Source of the DNA: Camelus ferus
Taxonomy: Eukaryota
NCBI RefSeq assembly: GCF_009834535.1
Contig: NC_045696.1
Location: 21,082,001 to 21,146,000 of the forward strand
DNA length: 64,000 nucleotides
Reading direction: 5' to 3'
Of this stretch, positions 4,170 to 62,908 are shown piece by piece. The first letter of the stretch is position 1. Each line of letters begins with the position of its first letter. Position numbers and translations under genes: made by a program. The notes under the pieces are model-generated. The model was given only the letters and a program-made list of their open reading frames with translations. It made no database searches and was not told the origin of the DNA.

Positions 4170-5311
4170 ATTTTAGTTGAATAAATGCCATTAATAGACA
4201 ATGTTCAATCATTTAGCCTGTATTTTATGTATAACACATTTTGACTTCAGCTTTCCAAAACTTTGCTACTATTTCTTCTGGTTCCAGTTTAATTTATCTT
4301 TTGCTATAAAATATATTCAAAGTGCAATAAAATATTGCAGAATTAGTATAGTCTCTTCAGTAGGATGTTTTATTTGACTTGCCCTATCAATTATGCTAGG
4401 CACAGATTTTCTATCAACTATTTGAAAGCTCCTGCTATGGTTTTAAAACTTCTCCTATGGTTATAAGAATATAAGCTCAGTTAACTTCTTATTTCACTGT
4501 GGACTATGTTAAGAACACCAGATGAATCTTCTGTCCACAACATTGAGCAACCACGTAGCTTTGTTCAAGACAAATATTATATATAATTTGAAGGTCAGAG
4601 AAAGTGATACAATTGATGTCAAGAAGCACTAAATATCACTTTACCCTAATCATCTTGTCTTAGAGTGCAAACTTAAGAAATGAAAAGGGATTGATAATGA
4701 GATAAGGAAGAGTGTGTTTTAGGGAGAGGCACACCACTGTTACATTTATATGACACTAAATCATGTTGAGATGGAGCCACTTGGAGAAGGAAATAAATCT
4801 ATCACATCTTCTATGGATATGATGTACTATTGCTAAGATAATAAAGCATGTCTATTTCGGAAGTTTCCTGTAATAGAGGCAAGTGATATTGTCAACAGAC
4901 CTTGGAAAACTACGATTATCTAATGAGAACTTTACACTTCAAAAAAGAGAGAGCACTTAGAATCATTTCTATTATTCTCATTCTTTTACTATCTTTTTGT
5001 CTTTTATAGCTGTGATTATAAATCCATCTTGATTAATTGGCGTGATCCTTGACATAATAATTTAAAATATTCAACAGCTTTCATGGACTTAAAATATACT
5101 GGTTTAAAGTAGCTCAGTATTTCACTCTTTTATGCAATATGCATACGAATATTGGCATGTATTCACTAATTTAAAAAAATAACGATGGTTACAATATTCT
5201 CTGTGGTATGAGATAATAATTCTTTTTTAATAAGGAAACAAAAAGAGTGAACAGTTGTGAGAATTGTGAGCAATTCTGTCACAGGGAAAGTGAGAGTAGA
5301 ATACATGGCAC

Positions 5312-5454
5312 AGGGAACTTTAGTCAATATCTTGTAATAATCTATAATGGAAATGAATCTGAAAAAGAATGTATATATGTATGTATATCTGAATCACTTT
5401 GCAGTACACCTGAAGCTAACACAATATTGTTAATCACCTATACAGCAATTTAAA
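5312..5454 (+). mobile_element. Short L1 3'-end stub with 14-bp TSD
   Basis: L1 3' UTR motifs (cagggaac...caatatcttgtaataatctataatggaaa...tacacctgaagctaacaca). Perfect direct repeat AGAATACATGGCAC at 5298-5311 and 5455-5468. Confidence 0.9.
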
Positions 5455-6999
5455 AGAATACATGGCACCATGAAAAATAAGAAAGCTCCATTGAGGCTTC
5501 ATTAAAGTGTTTCATAATCTTCCTATTTGAGGCTCCAACACTTTAGCAACCAACGTAATTGGGCATTTCTATTTTCTTTAGAATATGTGGTGATTCTTTT
5601 CACGTTTGCAATGAAAGGAGGCTTTATGTATCAGGAATGACAGGAACCAAAGGATGAATGAAATATACACACACACTAGAAATAATAACAGGGGTTCCTC
5701 ACAATGCAATGGAAGTAATCTCTACCAATCATTTCCTGGAGTGAAATGCGTGTCCTATGTCTGATCTGGTGTCCCTTCTACTTTCTTTATGCTGTTTCTA
5801 ACTGATCTGTCCTTGTGCATGTTAGCTCTCATGTTTCACGTCCCTGTTCTCTGTATCTCATATCAGCCCTTGTCAAACTGCACTAGTTGCAGTTTCAGGA
5901 ATTTTTGTCTTTTTAAAATGCTCAACGTTCTGTTTCTGACCTATATGTTCACAGCTTTATAGTCTTGTTCGTGTTTCCTACTATGCACACCCAGACAATC
6001 GTAGAGTTTGAATGTCTCACTTCTCAGCATACCACTGTCTTCTAAAAACGACATGACTGAATTTCTAATGGGGCTAATGCAAAAACTCTCCTTGATTCTG
6101 TAACAGGAAAACAATGTGATGTTGGGTGCTACCTGAAATATTTTTTCCTCATTGCTTAAAAAGTTTTTCCTATGGCAACTTCCAATGTCATACTAGCAAA
6201 TCTTATTTCTAACACGTTGGCTTCTATTGTTAAACCTGACCACGTGGCCACTTACAGCTTTTTCAGAGTTTTGCTGCCTAACTAACCCTTTAGGCACTTT
6301 TACAGTTGAAATATATTGACTGGAAATGTTAATGTTTTAGCAACTCATGGGGCTTTTGCAAGTGAAGTCCTTCACCAAGCTCAGAGGACTATATTTGCCA
6401 TTCTTGTCCTCTGTCTGTGTCATTAAATATAATTGGGATGTATGTTGCTCACTCAGATAAAAATAAATCACTTTCGAGAAATTTTAAAGGTAAAACAAGG
6501 AAAGGAATCCTGAAAGTAACAGACAGGATGTGACTAGTTTCTATGTTCTTACTATAACAATGGTAGTACTGGTTCTTTAGCTTAGAAACTAGACATGAGG
6601 CTTAGTTGAAAATAACCAAAAAAAAAAAAAATATATATATATATATATATACTTGCATTACAGTTAACTTAAGCATATGTTTCCACTTATCTCACTGAAT
6701 TGTGGACTTCTCCAAATATGGCTAACAAAGAGTCTCTAGACCCTCCAAACTCTATAACCAGTATTTTAAGTTCATTTAATTTGTGTATATATGGTACTTG
6801 TCTAATAACAGCCTGCTCTGAAGTGTTGCTTCTTTGTTTCAAGGCATTTAAGATTATTTGCAGATATTTCTTAGTCTATGAAAATGTATATGCTCAAGAT
6901 TCCCATTTTTCAATGGGCAGAAGATGCCTTGTGTTCAATAAAGCCTGTTTGCATTTTTTGGACTCACGGATATGACCAGACTTCCCAACCTCCCTTACA

Positions 7000-23260: not shown

Positions 23261-23565
23261 CTATGAACTCATCTACAAAAGAAACAGACTTGCAGACATA
23301 GTAAACAATCTTATGGTGACTGGGGAAAGGGAGTGGGTAGGGATAAATTTGGGAGTTTGAGATTTGCAAGTGTTAATCACTATATATAAAAATAGATAAA
23401 AAGCAAATTTCTTACATATAGCACAGGGAACTATATTCAATATCTTGTAATAACTTTTAATGAAAAAGAATATGAAAAGGAATATATGTATGTATATGCA
23501 TGCCTGGGACATTGTGTTGTACACTAGAAATTGACACATTGTAACTGACTACTTCAATTAAAAAA
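23261..23565 (+). mobile_element. 5'-truncated L1 (3' UTR only) with 17-bp TSD
   Basis: Complete L1 3' UTR homologous to 37460-37720 (reverse complement). TSD AAGAAAA(C/T)CACCATAAA at 23244-23260 and 23566-23582. Confidence 0.92.
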
Positions 23566-26063
23566 AAGAAAATCACCATAAAAACAAAACCATTCAATTG
23601 ATTTTTAAAAAAATCCTAGTTTTTCCCTGAATATTTAAACAATATTATGAGCCAGAACTTTAAAAAATACATTTATTCAGTTCTCATTATGTTTCAGTAA
23701 TTGTGCTATGTTATTGATATAAATACTGTGATAAAATCCTAGAATTAAGAGAGCCTAGTCAAAAATGAGCTTGCAATCCAAGCTAGGAAAAAAATAAAAA
23801 AGAATGAACAGAAATAACATACCCATGAGTAAAATCACTGGTTCAATAGATATAAGTGTATTCAGCTTATTAGTTGCAGTCGATCAAGATTCCAAAATTA
23901 TTACCTAAATTTACCCTCCCGCTATCTGTATATAACACTAAGTAGGTACAATGCATATCAGTTGGTCTTATAAGAACTCGACTATTCATTCATAGCAGGA
24001 GAGAGATATGGAGTTCTTAAAGAGCAGGCAGAGACAGTGGTGAGTGTTTCATGGAAAACTTGATTATTTTCATATGCTAAGGAGCATGTCAGTAAAGTGA
24101 GACAACAGTATAGGAAAAGAGAGGCTAAATGTTGAAGCAATGTCTCAACACATAAACAAGGTCATTTTTAATTCATTTATTATAAACTTTTTCTCTTTCA
24201 AGTCAGAATTACATTATATTCTTGGACATTATGAACATAAATGAATTACCTTTAATAGTTTAGAAATTCCTTAGTTGTATTAGAAATGGATTAATAAAAA
24301 ATAATTAAAATTAAGCTTACATTGAATCTTCAGTTATCTGGTATTTCCCCCTTATTCAAGATAATATTTATGACTACTTTAGAAGTATCATGTGTTAAAT
24401 TTGGATATTCTCTAACATAGAGTTTAAAGGATAATCTTTGCTTATTGTCAACATTGAACTCTTATAAATTGGATATTTAAATGCAACAAAATCAAATTTT
24501 AACATTTGAAATATATCCAACTTTTTGTATTGTTCAACTTTAGAAAGGAATATTGATTATGATATCCTTTTCTTAATACTGTTATTTATTTGATATTTGT
24601 AAATGACTTAACTCACTTTCAAATGATGTTTAATAACAGAACTAAAGTATCAGTGATGTACATGTACAATTATGTAACTACTGTCTTATACTAATATTAG
24701 CAAGTTTGGAATTCACCACAATTAAACCTATGTCCAATATTATAGTCAATTTCTTCTATTTTGTATAACAATTTTACATTCATATTGTACAATGTAATCA
24801 CTTGCTTGGACTAGCTACCAAAGACATTTTGGTTATTTGAGTATCTGTAGGCATATCTACAAATGATTCCTTTTATTTTAATATATTTTAGCTGCTTCTT
24901 GTTTCAAATGGAATAATTACATCATTGTTAAATTGTACATAACATAGTATATGTGCATATATATGTGTATACATACACAATACAGCATATGTGCATATAT
25001 GTGTATGTATACATGAAATTTTGAAGAAAATAATGAGATTTTGAAGTTCAAGAATGAATAAAATTTTCAAGAAATGGGAGGTATTTCTAACTCTGCACAA
25101 TACTTTGAGAAATGGTTAAATTCTAAATCACTGATGTTGGAAATAATAATTAAAAATGCCTTATGAGAAGTTTTTTTTGAATGTTGGTCTTTTTTACAAT
25201 AAAGACTACTTTTGTAATTTCAGTGCATCACACTTTTCCTGAATATGTATTAAATATTATGAATAATGAAGGAATATATGAGTTTTCTTTTAGCTTGGGT
25301 GAAGAAGTGTAATGGCCAGATAGATTTATTTATGAAGTATAAGAGCATATGTGGTCATTACTTAATTATAGGTATCACTTGTCACAATACTTGCATTAAG
25401 GCTTACATTCTAAAGTTTTTTAAGCCACATTTTATCTACACTTTGATGGTAAATTTTGATGTACCCAAAGATAAAAATAAAATTGAGTGAATGGAATCTC
25501 AACTACCTGGAGGTAGTCAGAAGATCCTGAGGTACCAAACTCAACATAAAGTTGTAGCAATTAAGATTTTAAAGCTAAAGTAGAAGAGTCAGAAATCAGG
25601 TCCTTAAGACACAGTTGACCCTAGAGCAGTGTAAACCTCTTTGGGTTTTTTTTTTTTTTCAAAATGTTTGCATGTAATATTGTACAGATAGTTTTTAAAA
25701 GCAGAATATATTTTTCCCCTTATGATCTCCTTTCATTCTTACAAAGGCAGATGTATGTGCAACCTGTAATATGTTGTTTAAATGCTGCCAAATGCTTTAG
25801 CTTGCCTTTACCACTTACCTCTTTGGTTTTTCTCATTAGATTTAACTTACTTTTGAAAATCCAAGGGAAATGTGGTGGCATATGGCAAGCAGTAGATGTG
25901 GATAATATTTTGTTTTTCTGCTTCCAAGAGCAGTGATATACAATATATTTGTCTGTTTAGATTCAAGTCCCAGCCTCCCTTAATGTTACAGCATATGAAT
26001 TACTTGACGCCAATTAATTTCTGTCTTTTCTCCCAAATCACAAGAATAGCTTCCCTACCTTAC

Positions 26064-29563: not shown

Positions 29564-32130
29564 AAGCTCTTATGGCCTTTCCAAAGATTAAACTACATCA
29601 TTTTAAGTATTATGGTTAGCTGATATCTGCTATCAAGTATATTCTGTTTAATCAAATTTATTTTCAATATCCAAGAATTTTGGAGCAGGGAACGCACTGT
29701 ACCCTGAGGATTGCCCTACATTTCATCTTCTTTCTGATCTGAGTAATCAAATTCAAGTCAGCAATCATTTCTCAGGAGCTTACAGCCGGCAGGGACCTGC
29801 CCTCAGGATGGGTCAGTGAGAGGCCATGTCATGTTCAGGCATACAAAGGATTTGGCTGGCTCTTGTAGGGGTGTCTGTTCATAGAATTGTCATTTAATAT
29901 AAAAGCTAAACGCTTCACTAATATTGTTCTGTGAACTGGATTTCCCTGGGGTCATCTCAAATAAGAAAATGTTGGAAAAAAAAAAAAGGAAAAGTGGGTG
30001 AGAGACAATAACTATATTAAGAACAACCAGAGGACAAACTTACAGTGGGTTTTTATAAAAAGCCATTAAATCTCTTGAAAATTTGGGGATTCGCCTTTAT
30101 GCAGACCAGTTCTTGCAGCCCTTAGTATTCTGAAATTGCTACATTTTTCTAAAGTTCCCCAAGGTAGATAATAAGAGAAGTAATCAAAGAAGGCAGGAAT
30201 TCATGAGTTCTGTCTTTTTTTTTTCCCCAACGTATGTATGTAGATAATATCATGTTTATTTTTGTGATTTCAGATTTCAATATCTTAAAAATTTTAAGCC
30301 ACTGATTATTTTAAGACCATCCTCATTATGAAATACTGAAAAATATGGAGATATATTCATTGCCCCTGAGAAAATCTGAATATTTGTCTGAATAAAATTA
30401 TATACTTTTGAGTATCCTCAAATACCCAATAAAATTCTCTGACTATGATTGCTGGGGAGTTTTGAGGTTTATGTTAAGTAGCTAAATTGACTTTATCTCA
30501 CACACAAGAGCTCCAAGAACTAGTATTTTTAGATTTACCTTAACTTCGGGTTCACTGTCTTTTTCATAATTTAACTTCTACATTTAACTGTTTCTACATG
30601 CAGCAGTAGCCTGCTGGACAGGTGGCTCAAGTTCAGGCCTAATCTGTTGCAGGCAGATGTAGACACTATAGATGATGTGTGGTGCTGATTTGTTAAGTAT
30701 GGAGTACTCTCATTCACTGCTGATAGCAAGCAGAGTTCAGCAGATGAGGTCATCCGACGCAAGTCTAGTGGGTAAGCCCTAAACCTTGTCCCCATTTTGT
30801 GCACTTGCCTTGAATTAGTTTTCAACTTAGAATCCCAGATATGCCCAAGCCCTTCTAGCATGGAAGGAACACATGCTTTAGTTCCACGCAGACACTGGGC
30901 AGTTGTAAGATAGCTCTGTACATCAGTAGTTCATTGGATGACTTACTGTTTACTGGTTTCCTTCCCCTCTCTTGCCAAAGATTGCAGATCTCCTAGAAGC
31001 TGAGTTGAAATAACATTTTCATTTAGCTCAGATAACTTCATTTTTCATCTCATACCTTCCACTTTGAATGTTCTCACTTTTTTTTGTTTCTCCAGTTTAT
31101 TCCCCATTGCTTCACATCTACATTTTATCTATCATCCTTGAATGCTTCTTTTAAAAAAATTGAACAATTGCTGTATTATTCTAGATATTAGGGGACACTG
31201 TTACTGAACAGTAAGTATCCAGAGGAACTATGGACTTACATTACAAATTTGACTGTTTTATACAGTTTATCTGCCTTTTTGATTTTACTTCTCCCAAAGA
31301 TTTGTCTTTATAAATGTTCCTTTGGACATATTTAGACACCCATCCCTAGTAAAAATAAAAAGACCCAGCCTAGGACAGGCACAGTAGCTCCTGTTCGTTA
31401 GGACAAGGAGATTGGAAAGATACCACTTTCTGTATCTCCCCACTCATCTTTTTTCCCTCAGCGCTCCTCTCGTCCTGACTACTGTACATACCTCCACAAC
31501 CCATCCTGGGTATTGCACCAGATTTATCTTTCTTATTCTCATTAATCCAGATATGTAATTAAGATATACATACATTGCATGGCTCATGTAATAAACTACA
31601 AATAATCCCTGAAGTTTCAGGTTTGGGGAAGCTGACAGTCTATTTTTCACTAGTCCACCTCCTGCCTCCTATCCTCCAATCAAATCAAGCTATTATGTGC
31701 TCCATGAAATTGGGCTATTTTCAGACTTCATGCCTCTGAAAATGTACTTTTGTCAAAATAAAATGGCCTCCCTTCACTCTTCTCACATTTCCCGGCATTC
31801 TTTTAGTTTAAACCAAATGATTCTTTTTCCATTTAGACTTCAGATCTCTAAAGTTAAGTATGACTATTGTCTGTGAACTTCTAGAGCATTTTTACCTGGT
31901 TTGTTTTCTTAAGACACATCCTATTCTACCTTATGTGTTACAGATACTTATATTTATTGTACATTCTTTACTTCACTCCAAATTTCCAGAAAATAGATGC
32001 CAGAAAACTAAGAATGAATAACCTTCTGCTATTCTCATTAGAAATAATTAGAACTAAATGAATTTTTGGTAAAATATGATAATACCATGGAAGAGAGAAA
32101 CAAAGATTTAAACTTTTTCTTCATGTGCCA

Positions 32131-34884
32131 TTTTTTAAAAAAAATTGAGGTATAGTTGATTTATAATGTTATGTTATTTTCAGATGTACAGCAAAGTGAT
32201 TCAGTTATACATAAATATATATCTATTTCATATTCTTTTCCATTATAGGCTCTTCCAAAATATTGAACATGGTTCCCTGTGCTATGTAGTAGGTCCATGT
32301 TATTTATTATATATATAATAGTGTGTAAATGTTAATACCAACTTCCTAATTTATCCTCCCCTCCCCCTTTTCCTTTGGTAACTGTAAGTTTGTTTTCCAT
32401 ATCTGTGAGCCCATTTCTAGTTTGAAAATAAGTTCATTTGTATCAAGTAGATTCCATATATAAATGATATCATATGACATTTGCCTTTCTCTGTCTGATT
32501 TACTTCACTTAGTATAATGATCTCTAGCTTCATCCATATTGCTGTAAATGGCCTTATTTCATTATTTGTCATGTCTGAGAAATATTCCATTGTAAAAATA
32601 TACCAAAAGTTCTTCATCCATTCATCTGTCCATGGACATTTAGGTTGCTTCTATGTCTTGGCTGTTGTAAATTGTTCTGCTATGAACATTAAGGTGCATA
32701 TATTTTTTTCTAATTAGAATTTTCTCTTTTTTTGGAATTTATTTTGTATTTGTAGGGTATTTAATGATGGCCATTCTGACTGGTGTGAGGTGATACCTCA
32801 TTATAGTTTTGATTTCCATTTCTCTGATAATTAGTGATATTGAGCATTTTTTCACGTGCCTATTGGCCATCTGTATATCTTCACTGGAGAAATATCTGTT
32901 TAGGTCATCTGTCCATTTTTGGATTGGGTTGTTTGTTTCTTTGTTATTGAGTTGTATGAACTGTTTGTATACTCTAGAACTTAATCCTTTGTCAGTCACA
33001 TCCTTTGAAAATATTTTCTCCCAGTCCATAGGTTGTCCTTTCATTTTGTTCATGGTTCCCTTTGCTATGCAAAAGCTTATGAGTTTAATTAGGTCCCATT
33101 TGTTTATTTTTGCTTTCATTTCTATTGCCTTGGTAGACTGACCTAGGAAAATATCACTAGGATTTATGTCACAGAATGTTTTGCCTATGTTCTATTCTAG
33201 GAGATTTATGTTGTTATGTCTTATGTTTAAGTCTTTAAGCCATTTGGAGTTTATTTTTGTGAATGGTGTGAGGGAGTGTTCTAAGTTCACTGATTTACAT
33301 GCGGCTCTCCAACTTTCCCAACACCACTTGCTGAAGAGACTGTCTTTTCTTCATTGTATATTCTTGCCTTTTTTGTTGAAGATCAATTGCCATGAGTCTA
33401 TGGGTTTATTTCTGGGCTCTCTATTCTGTTCCATTGATCCATATGTCTGTTTTTGTGCCAATACCATACTGTTTTGATTACTATAGCCCTGTAGTACTGT
33501 CTGAAGTCTGAAAGGGTATTCCTCCAGCTTTGTTCTTTTTCTTCAGTATTGCTTTGGCAATTCTGGGTATTTTGTCATTCCATATAAATTTTAGGATTAT
33601 TTGTTCTAGTCCTGTGAAAAATGTCCTAGGTAATTTGATAGAGATTGCATTAAATCTGTGATTACTTTGTGTAGTATGGCCATCTTAACAATATTAATTA
33701 TTCCAATCCAAGAATATAGGATATCTTTCCATTTCTTTAAATAGCCTTTAATTTCCTTTATCAATGTTTTATATAAGTCTTTGACTTCCTTTGTCAGGTT
33801 TATTTATAAGTATTTTATTTTATTTTTTGATGTAATTTTAAAAGGGATTGTTTTTTAACTTTCCTTTTCTGATATTTCATTGTTAGTGTAAAGAAATGAA
33901 ACAGATTTCTTATATTAATCTTTTAACCTGCTACCTTAGTAAATTTGTTATCAGGTCTGGTTGTTTTTGTGTGGAGTCTTCAGAGTTTTCTATATATAGT
34001 ATCATGCCATCTGCATGTAGTGACAATTTTACTTACCTTTTAATTTGGACTCCTTTTTATTTCTTTTTCTTGTCTGATTGCCACAGTTAGAACTTCCAAT
34101 ATTATGCTGAGTAGAAGTAGTGAGAGTGGGCATCCTTGTCTTGTTCCAGATTTTAGTGAGAAGGCTTTCAACTTTTCATCATTGAGTATTATGTTGACTG
34201 TGCATTTTTCATAAACTGCTTTTATTATATCGAGATATGTTCCCTCTACAGCTACTTTGGTAAGAGTTTTTATCATGAATAGATGTTGAATTTTATCAAA
34301 TGCTTTTTCTGCATCTATTGAGATGGTCATGTGGCTTTTGTCCTTTCTTTGGTTTTTGTAATGTATCACATTGATTGATTTGCATATGCTGAATCATCCT
34401 TTTAACCCTGGGATGAATTCGATCTATCGTAGGGTGTAGTTGTTTTTATATGTTGTTGGATTTGGTTTGCTAATATTTTACTGAGAATTTCTGCATCTAT
34501 ATTCATCAAAGGTATTGGCCTATAATTTTCTTTTCTGGTAGTGTCTTGTGTTTTGGTATCAGGGTAATGGTGGCTTCATAAAATGAGTTACAGATGTTCT
34601 CCCATCTTCAGTTTTTTGCAAGATTTTGAGAAGGATCAGTGTAAATTCTTCTTTGTATGTTTAGTAGGAAAATTCTTCGTTGAAGCCATCCACTCCTGAA
34701 CTTTAGTTTGCAGGTATTTTTTTTTAAATTGCTGATTCTATTTCACTTCTAGTAATTGGTCTGTTCAAATTATCTATTTCTTCTTGACTGCATTTTGGTG
34801 GACTGTATGTTTCTAGAAACTTGTCCACTTCATGGCTGTCCAATTTGTTGGCATAAAATTGTTCATAGCATTATCCTGGTTTGT

Positions 34885-34915
<31 letters not shown>

Positions 34916-35860
34916 GTATTTCTGTGGTATTGGTTGTGATTTCTCCTCTTTCATTTTTTACTTTGTTTATTTGGGTCCTCTCTTTTTCCTTCATGCTGAG
35001 CCCAGCTAGAGGTTTATTGATTTTCTTTACTCTTTCAATGAACTATCTCTTGGTTTTGTTGATTTTTGGGTATTTTTTAAACTTTATTTTATTTATTTCC
35101 TCCCTGATCTTTATTATTTCTTTCCTCCTGCTGGCTTTAGGTTTTGTTTGTTCTAATTTTTCTAATTCTTTTAGGTAATAGATTAGGTTATTTACTTGAG
35201 ATTTTTCTTGTTTTTGAGGAAGGCCTCTGTTGCCATGAACTTCCCTCTTAGGATTGCTTTTGCTGCATCTCATAGATTTTGTGTGGTTGTGTTTTCAATG
35301 TCATTTGTTTCAAGGTATTTTTAAATGTTTTCTTTGATTTCATCCAGTGATGAATCCCATTGATTTTTCCGTAGCATGTTGTTTAGTCTCCATGCAATTT
35401 TTTTTTCTTTCTGGTTTCTCTTTCTGTGGTTGATTTCTAGTTTTATACTGTTGTGGCAGAAAAGATGCTTAAACTAATTTCTATCCTCCTAAATTTGTTG
35501 AGGCTTGTTTTGTGTCCAAGTTTGTGATCTCTCCTAGAGAATGTTCCATGTGCACTTGAAAAGAATGTATATTCTGTTTTGGGGGGATGTAATGTTCTGA
35601 AAATATTAAATCGTACTTGAATGTATATTCTGTTTTTGAGGAGATGTAATGTTCTGAAAATAGTAATTAAGACTAACTGTTCTATTGTGTCATTTAGGAT
35701 CTCTGTTGCCTTATTTATCTTCTATCTGAATTTCTGTCCATTGATGTTAGCGGGCTGTTAAAGTCTCCTACTATTCTTGTATTCTCATCAATTCCTTTCT
35801 TTGTCTGTTAGTATTTGTCTCATCTATTTAGGTGCTCCTATATTGGGTCCATATATGTTA
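32131..35860 (-). mobile_element. Older 5'-truncated L1 with disrupted ORF2 (mid-EN to 3' end)
   Basis: ORF fragments 32417-32617, 32739-33119, 34040-34369 and 35043-35273 translate to L1 ORF2 pieces ([33 protein letters not shown]). Colinear with 37440-41215; many stops and frameshifts. Confidence 0.95.
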
Positions 35861-37349
35861 TGAATAAGTTAAATTCTTGAAACTGAAGTACATAGAAAGA
35901 TTTTTGACACCTGCCTGAATAACAATAAAGAAGGAAGGAATTGGTCTGTGCTTATATTATTTTTTCCCTTCCTTAGAAAAACCCAAACAAATAAATAATA
36001 ACAAATTTTTAACAGTAGTAGTAACATCTATTTTTCATGGTATTTAACCCAAATTTGCACTAGTTATCCCTTTGTGGAAATGTAATTATTGTTATGAAGG
36101 GTTGAGCAAAAGTGTTAAAGAAGAATTAACATGTCTCAACTATAAACTAAAAATCAAATCTTAGTAGTAATCTGTCAATGAAAACAAATATAAAGTTTGA
36201 GAACAACATACTTGCCTTTAGTTTGTAACAATTTAAAACAGGATTTCTATTTCAAATATGAATGATTATGAAAAACAATTTAGACTATCTAACATTCTAA
36301 TGACAGTACAACTTATGTTTGTAAGAGCAATTTGTTAGAGTTTATAACTATTTATTAAGCTCTAGAATCTCTAATTAAGCAACAAAGTAAGAAGTTAAGA
36401 TCCCTGATATTATCTTCTTATACATATTTAAAATGGAATTTATAGAATAAAGTAAAAAAGTAACTACATGGATGATAAAATCATTTCCATGTTCTAAATT
36501 ACCTTGAGATTATAACATTAGAATTTAATGACATTAGGATTTAATAATGGGAATTAGATAGTTTATACATCTCAAATTTCTAATAACACTTAAAGTAGAT
36601 TAAATCTTCTCCTATATAGGACCCTCTCATAATTTCACCTACTATTTTTAAAATGTGATATAGTTCAAATTTTTCTAAAGTCAAGTTATGAGTTATGTCA
36701 TTTCCATTTTCCACTTGGAAATGAAGTTCATCAATTTCTTTCTCCTTTCCCACTTTCTCTCTTTAGCTGTTATTCTATTTATTATTTATATTTATTTTTG
36801 TAAGATGGAATAGAAATATATATAGAATTATCTAAGAATCCCAAGCTTCGTGCTGGGTTAATATAGATGTCTTAAAAAATTTCATGTTGGATTATTATTT
36901 TGTTGGTATATTGCTATTCACACACTTAAGTATTACTTTAGGACTATTTTGTTCTAACTCTTTCTTTCCTACACAACTATTCTGCAGGAGACATGTTCTT
37001 CCTTTTCTACTTTACAGAGAGCTAAGTTTCCTTTGAAGAACTCTCATTTCTTTTAAGAGAATCTCTTCTCTTTAGAATATTTAAATCAACCAAGCTCTAG
37101 AAAAAGCTATATAATTCCAACTGTATTCTTTAGCTCTGGTTGGGAAACACAGTTGTTCCTATCTTTTAGCAATTTTGAAAACTCTCATATTATTGTTGAA
37201 TTAATGACTCAGCAAAACATCATACTCTGAATAGCACTTATTCATTGATTCAATCAATAGAATAAAATTAAAGATAGAGCCTTTATGATCCAGCTTCTGG
37301 AAATTTTTTTTTTAATTGAAATTTGTATCAAATGGTTAATCACATTTAT

Positions 37350-37365
37350 TGAGCCTGGTAATTTT
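37350..37365. repeat. Target-site duplication, left copy (TGAGCCTGGTAATTTT)
   Basis: Identical to 44526-44541; the terminal Ts overlap the poly(T) tail. Confidence 0.95.
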
Positions 37366-37377
37366 TTTTTTTTTTTT

Positions 37378-37438
37378 GGAGATATGATCTTTTAATCTAG
37401 AATCATGTGATTAAAGCATCTTTTATATCTTTCAGTAG
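37378..37438 (-). other. 61-bp 3'-transduced non-L1 sequence
   Basis: Lies between the L1's own A-tail (T-run 37439-37447) and a second T16 tail (37362-37377), inside the TSDs. Minus-strand ATTAAA at 37391-37396. Confidence 0.85.
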
Positions 37439-37760
37439 TTTTTTTTTAACTTTTTTATTGATTTATAATCATTTTACAATGTTGTGTCAAATTCCAGTGT
37501 TCAGCACAATTTTTCAGTTATTCATGGACATATACACACTCATTGTCACATTTTTTTCTCTGTGAGTTATCATAACATTTTATGTATATTTCCCTGTGCT
37601 ATACAGTGTAGTCTATTCTACAATTTTGAAATCCCAGTCTATCCCTTCCCACCCTCCACCCCCCTGGTAACCACAAGTCTGTATTCTCTGTCTGTGAGTC
37701 TATTTCTGTCCTTTATTTACGCTTTGTTTTTGTTTGTTTGTTTGTTTTTGTTTTTGTTTT

Positions 37761-40700
37761 TTAGATTCCACATATGAGTGATCTCATATGGTATTTTTCT
37801 TTCTCTTTCTGGCTTACTTCACTTAGAATGACATCCTCCAGGAGCATCCACGTTGCTGCAAATGGCATTATGTTGTCGGTTTTTATGGCTGAGTAGTATT
37901 CCATTGTATAAATATACCACCTCTTCTTTATCCAGTCACCTGTTGATGGACATTTAGGCTGTTTCCATGTTTTGGCTATTGTAAATAGTGCTGCTATGAA
38001 CAGTCATCCTGAAGTAGATTTCCTTCTGGATACAAGCCCAGGAGTGGGATTCCTGGGTCATATGGTAAGTCTATTCCTAGTCTTTTGAGGAATCTCCACA
38101 CTGTTTTCCATAGTGGCTGCACCAAACTGCATTCCCACCAGCAGTGTAGGAGGGTTCCCCTTTCTCCACAGCCTCTCCAGCATTTGTCATTTGTGGATTT
38201 TTGAATGACGGCCATTCTGACTGGTGTGAGGTGATACCTCATTGTAGTTTTGATTTGCATTTCTCTGATAATTAGTGATATTGAGCATTTTTTCATGTGC
38301 TTTTTGATCATTTGTATGTCTTCCTTGGAGAATTGCTTGTTTAGGTCTTCTGCCCATTTTTGGATTGGGTTGTTTATTGTTTTCTTATTGAGTCGTATGA
38401 GCTGCTTATATATTCGGAGATCAAGCCTTTGACAGTTTCACTTGCAAAAATTTTCTCCCATTCCGTAGGTTTTCTTCTTGTTTTATTTCTGGTTTCCTTT
38501 GCTGTGCAGAAGCTTGTAAGTTTCATTAGGTCCCATTTGTTTATTCTTGCTTTTATTTCTTCTAGGAGAAAATTTTTTAAATGTATGTCAGATAATGTTT
38601 TGCCTATGTTTTCCTCTAGGAGGTTTATTGTATCTTGTCTTATGTTTAAGTCTTTAATCCATTTTGAGTTGATTTTTGTATATGGTGTAAGGGAGTGTTC
38701 TAGCTTCATTGTTTTACATGCTGCTGTCCAGTTTTCCCAACACCATTTGCTGAAGAGACTGTCTTTATTCCAATGTATATTCTTGCCTCCTTTGTCAAAG
38801 ATGAGTTGACCAAAAGTTTGTGGGTTCATTTCTGGGCTCTCTATTCTGTTCCATTGGTCTATATTGGTCTGTTTTGGTACCAATACCATGCTGTCTTGAT
38901 GACTGTAGCTCTATAGTATTGTCTGAAGTCTGGGAGAGTTATTCCTCCAGCCTCTTTCTTTCTCTTCAGTAATGCTTTGGCAATTCTAGGTCTTTGATGG
39001 TTCCATATGAATTTTATTATGATTTGTTCTAGTTCTGTGAAATATGTCCTGGGTAATTGGATAGGGATTGCATTAAATCTGTAGATTGCCTTGGGCAGTG
39101 TGACCATTTTAACTATATTGATTCTTCCAATCCAAGAGCATGGAATATCTTTCCATTTTTTAAAGTCTTCTTTAATTTCCTTCATCAATGGTTTATAGTT
39201 TTCTGTGTATAATTCTTTCACCTCCTTGGTTAGATTTATTCCCAGATATTTTATTACTTTGGGTGCTATTTTAAAGGGGATTGTTTCTTTACTTTCTTCT
39301 TCTGTTGATTTATCGTTAGTGTAAAGAAATGCAACTGATTTTTGAACGTTAATTTTGTAACCTGCTACCTTGCTGAATTCTTCAATCAGCTCTAGTAGCT
39401 TTTGTGTGGACCTTTTAGGGTTTTCTATATATAGTAACATGTCATCAGCATATAATGACACTTTTACCTCTTCTTTTCCAATTTGGATCCCTTTTATTTC
39501 TTTCTCTTGCCTGACTGCTGTGGCTAGGACTTCCAGGACTATGTTGAATAGGAGTGGCGATAGTGGGCATCCTTGTCTTGTCCCAGATTTTAGTGGGAAG
39601 CTTATGAGTTTTTCACCGCTGAGTACTATGCTGGCTGTAGGTTTGTCATATATAGCTTTTATTATGTTGAGATATGTTCCCTCTATACCCACTTTGGCAA
39701 GAGTTTTTATCATAAATGGGTGTTGAATTTTATCAAATGCTTTTTCTGCATCGATTGAGATGATCATGTGGTTTTTGTCCTTTCTCTTGTTGATGTGATG
39801 TATTACACTGATTGATTTGCGTATGTTGAACCAGCCTTGTGTCCCTGGGATGAACCCCACTTGGTCATGATGTATAATCTTTTTTATGTGTTGTTGGATT
39901 CTATTTGCTAAAATTTTGGTGAGGATTTTGGCATCTATGTTCATCAGTGATATTGGCCTATAATTCTCTTTTTTTGTAGTGTCTTTGCCTGGTTTTGGTA
40001 TCAGGGTGATGGTGGCTTCATAGAATGAGTTTGGGAGTATTCCCTCCTTTTCAATCGTCTGGAAGAGTTTGAGAAGGACTGGTATGAGTTCTTCTTTGTA
40101 TGTTTGATAGAATTCCCCTGTGAAGCTGTCCGGTCCTGGACTTTTATTTGTAGGGAGGTTTTTAATTACTATTTCTATTTCCTTTCTAGTGATCAGATTG
40201 TTCAAGTGTTCAGATTGTTCTTGATTCAGTTTTGGTGGACAGTATGTTTCTAGAAACTTGTCCATCTCCTCTGGGTTATCCAGTTTGGTTCCATATAGTT
40301 TTTCATAATATTCTCGTATGATATTCTGTATTTCTATTTTGTTTGTTGTAATTTCTCCATTTTCCTTTCTTATTTTGCTAATTTGTGCTCTCTCTTTTTT
40401 CTTCTTTGTGAGTTTGGCCAGAGGTTTGTCGATTTTATTTACTTTTTCAAAAAACCAGCTTTTGGTTTGGTTGATTTTTTCTATGGTCTTGTTAATCTCT
40501 ATTGTATTTAATTCCTCTCTGATCTTTATTATTTCCTTCCTTCTGCTGCTTTTTGGGGCTTTTTGTTCTTCTTTTTCTAATTCATTAAGGTGGTGGGTTA
40601 AATTGTTTATTTGAGATTGTTCTTCTTTTTTGAGGAAGGCCTGTATCGCTATAAACTTCCCTCTTAGCACTGTCTTTGCTGTGTCCCATAGGTTTTGAGT

Positions 40701-41546
40701 GGTTGTGCTTTCATTATCATTTGTCTCAAGGTATTTTTTAATTTCAACTTTGATTTCCTCATTGATCCATTGTTTTTTCCATAACATATTGTTTAATCTC
40801 CATGCTTTCCTTTTTTTCTCCTTTGTTTCTCTGTTGTTGATTTCCAGTTTCATGGCATTGTGGTCAGTAAAGATGCTTGAGATAATTTCTATCTTCTTAA
40901 AATTGTTGAGGTTTCTTTTGTGCCCAAGTACACGATTGATCCTGGAAAATGTTCCATGTGCACTTGAAAAGAATGTATATCCTATTTTTGGGGGGTGTAA
41001 TGCTCTGAAAATATCCACCAAATCTAGTTTTTCTATTGTAGTATTTAATTTCTCTGTTGCCTTGTTTATTTTCTGTCTGGAAGATCTGTCTAGTGATGTT
41101 AATGCAGTGTTAAAATCTCCAACTATGATTGTATTCCCATCAATATCCCCCTTTATCTCTGTTAGTAATTCTTGTATGTACTTAGGTGCTCCTATATTGG
41201 GTGCATATATATTAACGAGTGTAATATCCTCATCTTGTATCACTCCTTTAATCATTATAAAATGTCCTTCTTTATCTTTCTTTATGGCCTTTGTTTTAAA
41301 GTCTATTTTGTCTGAAATCAGTACTGCAACACCTGCTTTTTTGGTTTTTCCATTTGCATGGAATATCCTTTTCCATCCTTTCACTCTCAATCTATATGTG
41401 TCCTTCTCCCTAAAGTGGGTCTCTTGTATGCAGCATATTGAAGGTTCTTGCTTTATTATCCAGTCTGCCACTCTGTGTCTTTTGACTGGAGCATTTAGTC
41501 CATTAACATTTACAGTAATCAATGATAGATGTGTGTTTATTGCCAT
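37761..41546 (-). pseudogene. L1 ORF2p (APE endonuclease, reverse transcriptase, CCHC domain), frameshifted in the C-terminal third
   Basis: 895-aa ORF 38859-41546 (NVNGLN, QET, GDFN, TDHN, QGCPLSP, YADD). Continues in other frames at 38374-38889 and 37994-38311 (CWRGC...HCWWEC) and ends ...LICGI-TAA at 37761-37763. Confidence 0.95.
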
Positions 41547-41950
41547 TTTGAACTTATCTTTGCAGTTGAATTGGTATATCCTCTTTGTTCCTTTCTTCTT
41601 CCTTTTGTGGTTTGGTAATTTTCCTTTGTATTATCATGGATTTTATTTAATTTTTGTGACTCCTTTGTAAATTTTTGGCTTGTGGTTACCCTTTTTTGTA
41701 AATCTATCAACCCATTACTATAACTGTTTTTATTAAACTGATAGTAACATGATCTCAAACCCATCCTACTGTTAAAAAAATTTAAAAAAGAAAGAAAAAA
41801 ATATTCTATATTTACCTGCCTCCCTCTCCCACTCTCAGTGATTTGTATGTCTTCTTTTATAATTTCATGTTTACTTTATTTGTAATTCATGAGTTATCAC
41901 CTTTCCAGTTGTGTGTTTCTCATTTCTGTAGCATCCTGCTGCTTTTCTAT

Positions 41951-42856
41951 TTAGAATAGCCCTTTCAATATTTCTTTTAGCATGGGTTTAGTGTTGCTAA
42001 ACTCCTGCAGCTTTTTTTTTTTGTCTGTGAAACTCTTTATTTCTCCTTCTATCCTCAAGGATAGCCTTGCTGGATAAAGGATCCTAGGCTGCATCTTTTT
42101 TTCATTCAAGGCTTTGAATATATCTTGCCACTCCCTTCTGGCCTATAGTGTTTGTGTAGAGAAATCAGCTGAGAGCCTTATGGGGGTTCCCTTGTAACTT
42201 ACTCTTTGCTTTTCTCTTGCTGCCTTTAGAATCATTTCTTTATCCTTGACTCTGGCCATCTTGATTATGATATGTCTTGGTGTGGGTCTATTTGGGTTCT
42301 TCCTGTTTGGGACCCTCTGAGCTTCCTGTACTTGGATATCTGATTCCTTCTTTAAATTTGGGAAGTTTTCAGTCATGATTTCTTCAAAAACCTTTTCAAT
42401 CCCCTTTGATCTTTCTTCTCCTTCTGGGACCCCTATTATGCGAAGATTGGGACGCTTTATATTATCTCATAGGTCCCTTATGCTATTTTCATTATTTTTT
42501 ATTTGCTTCTCTTGTAGTTCTTCTGAATGGGTGCTTTCTATTGCCCTGTCTTCTAGATCACTAATTCATTCCTCTGCATTATCTAGTCGGCTTTGCACAG
42601 CTATTAGATCATTCCTCATCTCTGTCAATGAGTTTACCCATTCTACTTGGCTCTTCTTTATAGCTTCAATTTCATTTTTGACATATTTTATATCTCTAAA
42701 CACTATCTCTTTAAATTCCTTCAGCAATTCGATCACTCCTTTTTTGAAGTCTTGACCTAGTAGGCTATCGATGTCTATTTCGTTGATCTTTCTTTCAGGG
42801 GATTTCTCTTGTTCTTTTAATTGGGAAAGGTTTTTCTGCTTCTTCATCTTGCTCAT
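41951..42856 (-). pseudogene. L1 ORF1p (coiled-coil, RRM, CTD) with three premature stops
   Basis: Single frame from ATG 42856 to TAA 41951-41953. Motifs NIKRPNLRIIGVPEGEE, ENFPNL, PRHIIIK, ILKAAREK, PIRLSADFS, ARREW, YPARL. Stops at 42566-42568, 42467-42469 and 42143-42145. Confidence 0.93.
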
Positions 42857-43299
42857 ACCTCTTTGGCACTGTGGTTTATGGAGTATCAGTTGTTTATTTT
42901 GGTCCTTAAGGATTTTATCTATCTGATGCCTATTTAGGAATAGAACTTAGGAAAAAAAGAAAAAAAAATAAGAGAGAGAGAGAAAATTTTAAAAGAAGGG
43001 AGAAAGAGGGTTTGAAAACAGTGTATAATGAATAATAGAAGAGTGAGTTGAAGCAGAGTATTAATCGGGTTGAGACGTCCTTTTGAAACCTTTACAAAAA
43101 AAGGTGGGGGGGAGATGAATAGATGTATTTGAAACCTGTGTCTAATCAATAGCAGGACATCAAAACCCAAGAGAAATAGAAATGAATTAAGAAGTAAAGA
43201 TTAAGAGAGTAATAGAAAATAGAACAGGTAAAAACAGATTAAAAAAAAGGGGGGGGGGGGTTTGTCGGTGTTCTCCTGGAGTCTGTGTGCTTTTAATGT

Positions 43300-44525
43300 G
43301 AAGTCTTTCTGTCTTCGTCCTGTTTTGGAAGCTCAGCTTGCTGTTTCCAGAGGCCCTCCGTTGGCGCCCTCTTCTGTGCTGCTCCCAGCACCTGTCGGCA
43401 AGCAGATCGTGCCTCCTCCTAACACTGGGTCATGTGCAGCTCTCTGCTGTGGGCGGGCGAGTCGCTGCCCCTCCGGATGCCGCAGTCAGATGTTGCAGAC
43501 TGGCCGGGTAGGAGGGCGGGTCGTGCCCCCTCCCAGCACCTCGGTCAGGGGCTGTGTTCCTGCCCGAAAGGCAGGGGGCCGCTCTCGCTCTACCTGCGCC
43601 GCAGCCGGTAGCACTGCTGCTCTGTGCGGCTGTGCGCTCCACCCTGGTCGGCGCTCTGTAGGTGGGCTCGGGGAAGACCGAGGGACAGCCCTGTCCCTGC
43701 TCCGAGCAAAAACCCAGTTCCTTGTTTGTCTTTGTGGAGCAAGTTCTCTGAGGGACCAGGATGGAAGGATCCTATCTGCCCTGGGCTGCAGGCCAGTCTC
43801 AGTCTGGCCTTTGAGGCTGCTAAGCCCTTCGGTGCGGATGCAGGTTTCGCCCCCGCCCGAGTGCTCAGCGCGGAGGATATCGTGGCTGTGCCTGAGCCCC
43901 GCGTCTCTTCCCCCGAAAACTTTCCGCGGGTTTTCAGAGATGGGGGTGTGCACCCTTCCCCCGTGAGCACATCAACCTTGCTGTTTTATGGAGGGCCCAG
44001 GTTGTTCTGCCCTGTGCACCCACAGCCACGGCGTGCAGCCCCTTGCGTTCCCCCGGGGCTGCCTCCGTGCAGCCACTTCCGTCCTCCGCCCGGCTTGTGC
44101 AGCCTGGCCCTGCCCGCGGCTGCCGGCCCGCGTCTCAGGCTGGGTGTCGGGGGGACGCTCTGTGCCCGTTTAACTTAGTTCTGTCAGTCAAGGGCTGCTC
44201 TGTACAGATCCGAGCCTCGGAGGCTCCCCCTTCGTCCCGCTGGCCTCTCAGTGGGAGAGGGGAGACCCAGCGAGCGAGCGCCAGTCCTCCTTTGCCGCTC
44301 CCTCCCCGCGGGACCCGTCTGGCGCTGCTTTGCCTTTTGTTCTTTCTTTTTTCCTTTTCTCCTACCAGATTTTTGGCGTCTTTATCTTTTGAAGAGGGCG
44401 ATGTTCTGTCGGAGTTCCACAGGTGCTCTGGTTGGCTGAGTGGGTCTGTAGATGTGGGTCTTGGTGTATTTGTGGGAGAGGGTGACCTGCGAGCGTCCTT
44501 CTACTCTGCCATCTTCTCCGTCTTC
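43300..44525 (-). promoter_or_regulatory. L1 5' UTR internal Pol II promoter, CpG-island-like
   Basis: Only GC/CpG-rich segment in the window. YY1 core AAGATGGC at 44508-44515, about 11 nt from the element's 5' end, as in other mammalian L1s. Confidence 0.85.
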
Positions 44526-44541
44526 TGAGCCTGGTAATTTT
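44526..44541. repeat. Target-site duplication, right copy, ending at a TTTT/AAAAA EN site
   Basis: TGAGCCTGGTAATTTT followed by AAAAA. Confidence 0.95.
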
Positions 44542-57829: not shown

Positions 57830-59602
57830 ATTATATAAGCAATGAACTTGAAATTAACAAAGAAACTCCATTTAAAATAACTTTCCCCCAGAACACTTAA
57901 GAATATATTTATCAACAATTATAAATATAAATATTTTACATTGAAAATAATAAAATATTGCTGAGAAAAATTAGAGAAAGTCTAAAAAAAATGGAGAGCT
58001 ATTTCATGCACATGTATGGAAGACTCAATACTGTTAAGATGCTAATTTTCCTCAAAATTATCTAAAAATTCAACAATGCCTATTGCATTCCCCATATAGT
58101 TTTTTTTATAATTAACAAGCTTATCCTAAAATTTACATAGAAATGCAGAGGCTCTAATATATATAAAATATTTTGAAAAAGAAAATCAAGTAGGAAGACT
58201 TAACACTTCTCAATTTCAAAATTCACTATAAAACTATTGTCCTATCAAGATGAATGATACTGGGGTAAGGGTATATACGTAGATTAAGGTAACAGAACTG
58301 ACAGTTCAGAAACAAATCCTTATGTGATGATCAATTGATTGTTGACATAGATGTCAAGACAAATCAGCAAAGAAAAAGTAGTTACTTTATCAAATTGTGC
58401 TGGAACAACTGAATATCCATATTACAAATAATAAATTTATACCTGCACTCCCTACACTATATCCCCAACATATATTCAAAATGGATAGTAGAGATGAATA
58501 TAGGAGCTTAAACTACAAAACTTCTAGAAGAAAACACACATATAAATATTTAAGGCCTTGTATCAGGCAGAGTCCTTAGATATTATATACAAAGCAGGAT
58601 ATATAAAATAACAACCACAACAACAAAGATAAATGGGACTCCATCAGTGTTAAAACCTTTGTGCTTCAAAAGACAAATAATGAAATTAAAAGCTAAACCA
58701 CAGAGTGGGAAAATGTTTGTAAATCATGTACCTGAGAGAGGGATTATATTCAGCATATAAAAAAAAACCTTACAACTCAATAATATGAAGACAAACATAA
58801 AGTTAAAAATGGGTATAATATTTAAAGAAACATTTCTCTAAATGATAAAACGGCTAATAGACACATGAAAAGAGGGTCAACATCAGCAGTCATTAGAGAA
58901 ACACAAAGTAAAACCGCAGTGAGGTGTTGTTTCATACCTCCTAGAATGGCTTTAATTAAAGAGAAAAAAAATAACAAGTGTAAGCAAAGAGGAGAAATTA
59001 GAATCCTCAGATGATTATAGTGGGCATGTAAACGGATAGAGACCTTCGGGAAAAGTGGGCAGTTTCTAAAATCAAACATAAATACCATATGAAGTACTGA
59101 ATCTGCTGTTAGGTATTTACCCAAGAAAAATGAAAGAAGACTTGTATGCAACTGTTCATAGCTGTATTATTTATAATAGCTAAAATGTGAAAGGAATCCA
59201 AATGTCCACTAGTTGGTGAATGGACAAGCAAAAATGTAGTGCATCCATACAATGGGACACTCTTCAGCAAAACAACAACAACACAACAACAACAACAAAA
59301 ACTACAGTTTGAACCTCAGGAAGTATATGTTAGACACAAAGACTATATATTTTATTACTTCATTTATATTAAGTATCCCTAAAAAAATATCTATAGCAAC
59401 AGAATCCAGATTAGTGGGGACTTGGGGTGGAAACTGGGATTCACTAGAATTGTGCATGAGGTATATTTTAGGGTGATGGAAATGTTCTAATATCAGACTG
59501 TGGTGATCATGACAAAACTTTATAAATATACTAAAAATCATTGAACTATACACCTAATTTATGGGATGTAACTTATACTTCAACAAAATTGTTTGAAAAA
59601 AG
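57830..59602 (+). mobile_element. Ancient L1M (L1MB-ME type) ORF2 3' half and 3' UTR
   Basis: ggaagactcaatactgttaagatg; aaattgtgctggaacaactgaatatcca; gacacatgaaaagagggtcaacatcagcagtcattagagaa; gggtgatggaaatgttcta...aaaatcattgaactatacac; A-rich end. Confidence 0.85.
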
Positions 59603-62585: not shown

Positions 62586-62908
62586 TTTTTTTAATTGAAT
62601 TATTGTCAGTTTACAATGCTGTGTCAATTTCTGGCATACATTACAATTTTTCAGTCATACATGATTATACATATATTCATTTTCATATTCTTTTTCCCCA
62701 TGAGCAGTATACCACAAGATCTTGCATGTATTTCCCTGTGCTATACAGTGTAAACTTGTTTATCTATTCTATATACACCTGTCAGTATCTACCAGTCTCG
62801 AACTCCCATTCTGTCCCTTCCCACCCACCTCCCCTCTGGCAACCATAAATTCGTATTCTATGTCTGTGAGTCTGTTTCTGTTGTATATTTAAGTTCATTT
62901 GTCTTCTT
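62586..62908 (-). mobile_element. 5'-truncated L1 3' UTR (camelid-type)
   Basis: Colinear with 37455-37720 (ttacaatgctgtgtcaattt, caatttttcagtcatacatg, tttccctgtgctatacagtgta, tgtctgtgagtct). Degenerate TSD taaaatattttctt/tagaatgctttctt. Confidence 0.9.

Follow-up and report, generated by a model that had tools for sequence, protein, structure and literature searches.

A full-length L1 insertion in Camelus ferus ends in 61 bp of non-L1 sequence that lies, with the element, inside a single target-site duplication (TSD), and this segment probably (at about 0.6) reached it by short 3′ transduction, the parent L1 having sat in a multi-copy host sequence. The insertion was analysed in a 64,000-nt stretch of contig NC_045696.1 (positions 21,082,001 to 21,146,000 of the forward strand), which we call the window and to which all coordinates refer.

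Structure of the insertion

The L1 insert measures 7,160 bp (~7.1 kb), lies on the minus strand and is bounded by two exact copies of a 16-mer. This 16-mer occurs exactly twice in the window, at 37350-37365 and 44526-44541, against a chance expectation of 0.11 (two mismatches allowed), and the duplication is not extendable on either side. The parts of the insertion are as follows.

37350..37365, minus strand: TSD, copy at the L1 3′ end, 16 bp, whose L1 strand opens with AAAA (identical to the copy at 44526-44541)
37366..37377, minus strand: second A-tail of the inserted RNA, with 12 A before the TSD begins and 16 if the four A that open the TSD are counted (from the sequence; bridged by one contig in three of four runs)
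37378..37438, minus strand: 61-bp extra segment, multi-copy host sequence, likely transduced (depth 68-256x single-copy flank)
37391..37396, minus strand: ATTAAA poly(A) signal, 13 nt ahead of the second tail, its use suggested by its position
37439..37447, minus strand: first A-run (A9), end of L1 proper (from the sequence; ~100 other L1 contigs per run leave at 37439)
37454..37459, minus strand: the L1's own AATAAA signal (from the sequence)
37797..41546, minus strand: L1 ORF2 (endonuclease/reverse transcriptase), four frame blocks (open reading frame list, tblastn with P0005, homologues with PF03372/PF14529/PF00078)
41951..42856, minus strand: L1 ORF1, three premature stops (comparison with relative P0001)
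42857..44525, minus strand: L1 5′ UTR, beginning directly after the TSD (GC-rich part with 63% GC and CpG observed/expected of 0.63)
44526..44541, minus strand: TSD, 5′ copy, with TTTTT just ahead of it (site TTTTT/AAAA; exact match to the 3′ copy)

Read on the minus strand, the 3′ end consists of AATAAA (37459-37454), AAAGTT, which separates that signal from the first A-run, A9 (37447-37439), the 61-bp segment (37438-37378; 28% GC) and A16 (37377-37362). Inside the segment, ATTAAA at 37396-37391 is followed by 13 nt and then by A16, whose last four A are the first four bases of the TSD, with 12 A outside it. No alternative TSD pairing the 5′ junction with the DNA directly after the first A-run fits, and the 61 bp therefore lie inside the duplication. 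An earlier note on this DNA had described the order AATAAA, A9, segment, A16 and TSD, an ATTAAA placed 13 nt ahead of the second tail, and a perfect 16-bp TSD around the whole insert including the 61 bp. That description is borne out: the segment letters are exactly as quoted there, no other placement of the TSD fits, and the only amendments are AAAGTT and the four shared A. The A9 run is likely to combine the parent's shortened tail with the A-run that opened the parent's own TSD.

The 5′ junction reads TTTTT|AAAA, which is the consensus of the L1 endonuclease, reported as 5′-TTTTT/AA (PMC7980453). Homology to ORF1 and ORF2, an exact 16-bp TSD, a 3′ A-tail and a TT/AAAA endonuclease site together mark the element as a LINE-1 insertion. 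The anatomy of a 3′ transduction is likewise present, in that sequence foreign to L1 follows the L1 end, closes with a second A-tail and lies within the TSD, and that a poly(A) signal (ATTAAA) stands in the range 10-30 nt ahead of that tail.

ORF2 is open for 895 aa and is then broken by frameshifts near 38865, 38414 and 38010; its named relatives (PF03372/PF14529/PF00078) are 64-80% identical. ORF1 (PF02994) has stops at codons 97, 130 and 238 and otherwise shares 294 of 300 residues (98%) with the uninterrupted P0001. The two are separated by a 404-bp spacer (41547-41950, minus strand) containing a 112-codon stop-free frame (41875-41537) that overlaps the ORF2 start. Retrotransposition competence takes two intact ORFs, and here there are three stops in ORF1 and three frameshifts in ORF2; judged by its reading frames, this copy is full-length but broken and dead.

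Older L1 remnants are found elsewhere in the window, at 32100-35860 (minus), 57934-59232 (plus), 62588-62891 (minus), 23417-23567 (plus) and 5305-5456 (plus). The remnant at 32-36 kb, ~80% identical to the young L1, shares its strand and is 1.5 kb away from its 3′ end. The target flank at 37240-37349 may be what is left of an L2 3′ end, and old L1 3′ ends match at 37302-37326; the young L1 therefore seems to have landed among older repeat remnants.

Presence of the junction in sequencing runs

Contigs from four runs, representing four studies and four organisms, were aligned to 36960-37500 at 85% likeness. Matches were counted over ~21 letters. As repeat, 37353-37387 was skipped, with the effect that the depth of the first segment bin is reduced and pieces are cut. 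The flank is present in 20 of 24 listed runs (four organisms, contig sets of ~2 Gb) at 0.93-0.99 of words. A single contig spans the flank, the TSD, the tail and 26 segment bases in three of the four runs, from three organisms (0, 0 and 1 differences), while the fourth run, X8, has a contig with 27 unplaced letters at the junction that is compatible with the same allele. No empty allele was seen among these contigs, whose aligned stretch covers a single flank of the insertion. Because the junction recurs in three of four independent runs, it is no assembly artefact; the insertion is real, is not private to one animal and is common to at least three organisms. One flank difference, A>G at 37315, was seen in the contig of run X14 only. 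Since the L1 copy is dead and is common to at least three organisms, nothing points to a source that is retrotransposition-competent today.

The segment and the L1 family 3′ end

In all four runs the L1 end reaches 150,000-228,000x single-copy depth and the 61-bp segment 68-256x, so that the segment stands at 0.03-0.17% of L1-tail depth. Hundreds of L1 contigs per run exit at 37439-37453 into unrelated flanks, and four other L1 3′ ends in the window, of older subfamilies (67-72% identical), are without the segment. Whether the 61 bp might belong to the family's 3′ UTR consensus in most copies, a check proposed with the first description, is answered in the negative by the depth ratio. At 37468, G replaces A in ~43-46% of the L1-end depth in all four runs, marking a subfamily-diagnostic position of the 3′ UTR.

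Copy number of the segment

All three segment bins are high in each of the four runs, and the bin 37416-37434 stands at 120-142x flank depth in every run. The flank at 36960-37301 lies at ~1-2x single-copy depth; the bin 37302-37320 reaches 11-24x, raised via its likeness to old L1 ends. Because this ratio in the bin 37416-37434 is so even across four studies, the segment fits a nuclear repeat better than organelle DNA, and a mitochondrial origin, which we also considered, is disfavoured on the same ground.

Summed contig depth differs from copy number and was calibrated by simulation with 31-mer unitigs, a word length that we infer. The simulations used plain unitigs, star phylogenies and ungapped placement in place of Logan's assembler and the aligner applied to the real contigs. 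The first ones lacked the background L1 tails, the skipped repeat or both; the final one has both and is the most reliable for piece lengths. In unmasked bins, one source yields 2-4x, 10 copies yield 32-70x and 25-40 copies yield 120-260x, which suggests roughly 25-40 copies of the segment, with a range of 20 to ~250 compatible. An earlier simulation had seemed to require very low divergence among the copies, a requirement that was gone in the final one. Across 37378-37443, the segment belongs to a sequence with some tens of copies in four organisms.

A unique tag would have one genomic place, and a depth of 68-256x in four of four runs, against 2-4x simulated for one source, is not that of one place. 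The segment is multi-copy and therefore cannot alone point to one parent, and with this the earlier note's proposal that it is a barcode for the source locus falls.

Other copies of the segment

In three of the four runs, the contig that carries the unique flank (1,717 letters) breaks off at 37403. If the contigs are built on 31-mers, as we infer, this end implies that another sequence has 37374-37404, that is, the last 26-27 segment bases, then exactly four A and then a letter other than A. Simulated siblings tailed at the same site gave an end at 37403 in 0/108 and 0/80 runs, while untailed copies gave it in 58/80 runs under each of two models, a non-L1 repeat and L1 siblings with a longer tail. 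These results suggest that near-identical copies elsewhere continue past a genomic CC-AAAA and have no A-tail there. This insertion would have been polyadenylated at that point, in keeping with read-through RNA that carries a cryptic signal. Sibling insertions had also been proposed; those polyadenylated at the same site are disfavoured by the same 0/80 and 0/108 simulated runs.

Among the longest pieces listed, none of more than 62 letters joins the segment to the L1 tail in the four runs. The end at 37403 and the lack of such a joining piece occur together in 38/80 simulated runs with a non-L1 repeat versus 14/80 with L1 siblings carrying a longer tail, and nearly all of the latter 14 are at 0.5% divergence. 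This favours the other copies being a non-L1 repeat rather than dozens of L1 siblings. The four runs have most genomic copies in common and so are not independent tests of copy structure.

Among the loose ends listed, run X12 only has one behind 37443, formed by three contigs with an agreement of 0.99. In its context the head of the segment is preceded, on the L1 strand, by five A and a T and not by the L1 tail. On the plus strand this context begins ACTTTTATTTTTTTATAG and resembles the L1's own 3′ end over ~15 letters; the motif is absent from the window. The T|AAAAA looks like a target of the L1 endonuclease, into which a parent may have inserted so that the A-run began its TSD; a nested retrocopy or a template switch that joined through microhomology would account for it equally well. 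On the plus strand the loose end also resembles a pyrimidine tract ending in AG, which may be the intron end of a multi-copy gene or of a duplicated block.

Searches for the identity of the segment

No second copy of the 61 bp was found in the 64-kb window (best local score 32, versus 31-44 for shuffles). Within 3 kb of either junction or in the L1 body, the best match to a templated source was 9-14 letters. The segment was also considered as an old L1 ORF2 remnant and rejected: when it was scored with 11 of the 120 ORF2 homologues, 175 of 200 shuffles equalled its protein score; its k-mer likeness to the L1s of the window is no higher than that of the flank, which likewise disposes of it as an L1 remnant. 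In Rfam there was no match at the gathering score, the best being mir-232 with 22.6 bits versus a gathering score of 67, and a search for structured RNA in the segment gave a hairpin z of -1.35, with 21 of 200 shuffles as good.

Two motifs had no match in metagenome contigs, and two segment motifs were absent from the paper texts searched. An 18-mer had seven matches in viral contigs, which extend to 19 letters only and are attributable to chance. A catalogue of alpaca satellites (PMC13751797) may be relevant to the identity of the repeat; the segment motifs are absent from one of its supplements, where exact matching would miss diverged consensus sequences.

Origin of the segment

Under the favoured reading, the parent L1 would have landed in one of the copies of a host repeat. 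The RNA transcribed from it would have run past the L1's own AATAAA into the adjoining DNA and been cleaved 13 nt after the cryptic ATTAAA, and the RNA would then have been copied whole into a TTTTT/AAAA site with a 16-bp target duplication. The read-through, the use of ATTAAA and the existence and place of the parent are the conjectural steps; the parent likely lay inside repeated sequence because the 61 captured bases are multi-copy. A transduction is supported by the single TSD that encloses the L1 and the segment, by ATTAAA 13 nt before the tail in a segment of <100 bp, like most human transduction ends, and by the absence of the segment from the usual family 3′ end (0.03-0.17% of L1-tail depth). 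The earlier note had called the segment the downstream flank of the source L1. This stands as to its place inside the TSD, its poly(A) signal, its distinctness from the family 3′ UTR and the copies that look untailed at the site, as a source flank would be; it does not stand as to uniqueness.

Adjacency by itself would make the 61 bp the normal 3′ end of the L1 family, which the trace depth of the segment relative to L1 tails, the hundreds of contigs per run leaving at 37439-37453 into unrelated flanks and the four older window L1 ends (67-72% identical) without it render wholly improbable. It is very unlikely, too, that the segment is single-copy DNA beside one source locus, whether or not tailed siblings exist, as first proposed, and owes its excess depth to short chance matches to an unrelated abundant repeat. 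Matches were indeed counted at ~21 letters, and the A/T-rich bin 37302-37320 does reach 11-24x via old L1 ends; yet three adjacent segment bins are high in four of four runs while 36960-37301 stays at ~1-2x, segment 20-mers and 25-mers are no closer to the window L1s than flank k-mers are (at most 15/20 versus 17/20), and one source yields 2-4x in simulation. A further history shares the mechanism of the single transduction and differs from it only in lineage: a few dozen L1 siblings would carry a longer transduced tail from one master, and this copy would have ended early at ATTAAA. Dog L1 groups sharing one transduction are known (10 copies; PMC13103737), and very alike siblings reproduce both the depth and the end at 37403 (11/20 runs at 0.5% divergence). 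At a divergence of ≥1.2%, nearer the age of this copy, that end and the lack of a joining piece coincide in 3/60 simulated runs, however, no piece of >62 letters among the longest listed joins segment and L1 tail in any of the four runs, and the X12 loose end has non-L1 context ahead of the segment, all of which makes such a lineage rather unlikely.

The segment could also have joined the L1 from another RNA, an explanation to which we give a minor but real share. Either a multi-copy RNA, polyadenylated at ATTAAA, was reverse-transcribed first, with a template switch onto the A-rich end of the L1 RNA, or a nested retrocopy, 5′-truncated to 61 nt, was inserted later into GTT|A9 of the L1 tail with an A-only duplication that would leave no visible trace. 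A T|AAAA site for the endonuclease is present in the L1 tail, the X12 context (ACTTTTATTTTTTTATAG, plus strand) is like the L1 3′ end over ~15 letters and could guide a switch, and no parent L1 was seen in the contigs listed. Against this, L1 chimeras of such a kind are uncommon. The other copies of the segment look untailed at the site, which speaks against its being where a retroelement, or an mRNA retrocopied many times, usually ends, and no Rfam family was matched. A rarer event would also be needed, given that ~25% of human L1 insertions carry transductions in the data of PMC13009371. In one specific form, which we hold to be quite improbable, the 61 bp would derive from RNA of a multi-copy camel sequence with an L1-3′-like A-rich stretch upstream, and the reverse transcriptase would have switched to a full-length L1 RNA via this likeness, yielding a chimera with L1 at its 5′ end and host RNA at its 3′ end that resembles a transduction. 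If such a template-switch chimera were true, look-alikes of this sort would mislead source tracing.

Comparison with known systems

In 56 colorectal cancers studied with long reads, 248 of 349 L1 transductions (71%) are <100 bp, and an A-tail often stands on either side; a poly(A) signal lies 10-30 bp upstream of 274 of the 349 ends (79%) (PMC13009371). The camel case shares with the partnered short 3′ transduction described there an L1 followed by a short piece of downstream DNA with an A-tail on each side, a signal that lies 10-30 bp ahead of the end, and one TSD. It differs in being germline, old, broken and full-length, and in that the captured sequence is multi-copy, a kind that is filtered out in studies of this sort. 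Germline LINE-1 3′ transductions have been reported in dogs at 18 (PMC7980453) and 322 loci (PMC13103737), including parentless ones; the latter report describes a group of 10 dog L1s sharing one tag and removed candidates with many alignments, a filter to which the camel case would fall. Like the dog cases, the camel element is a full-length insertion with a probably transduced tail in a non-human mammal; the dog cases, in contrast, are dimorphic and point to active sources, whereas the camel junction is common to at least three organisms and no source has been traced. Within camelids, a transposon survey counts ~350,000-400,000 L1 fragments per genome and mentions transduction once (PMC8605555). 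A literature search for a study of camelid L1 transduction found none.

L1-mediated chimeric retrogenes and nested retrocopies likewise join non-L1 sequence to L1 within one TSD at an A-rich junction. Well-known L1 chimeras carry cellular RNA at the 5′ end, whereas in the camel the non-L1 part forms the 3′ end, and the searches yielded no donor RNA for it. The case works like a short partnered transduction and has the anatomy of one, and fails as a barcode.

Where 3′ transductions have been counted, short ones prevail (PMC13009371); hundreds are catalogued in dogs (PMC13103737). A repeated tag such as this one would not name its parent without longer flanks. The camel segment is at most the first noted example of a 3′ transduction in the camelid lineage, and it flags a camel multi-copy sequence of some tens of copies.
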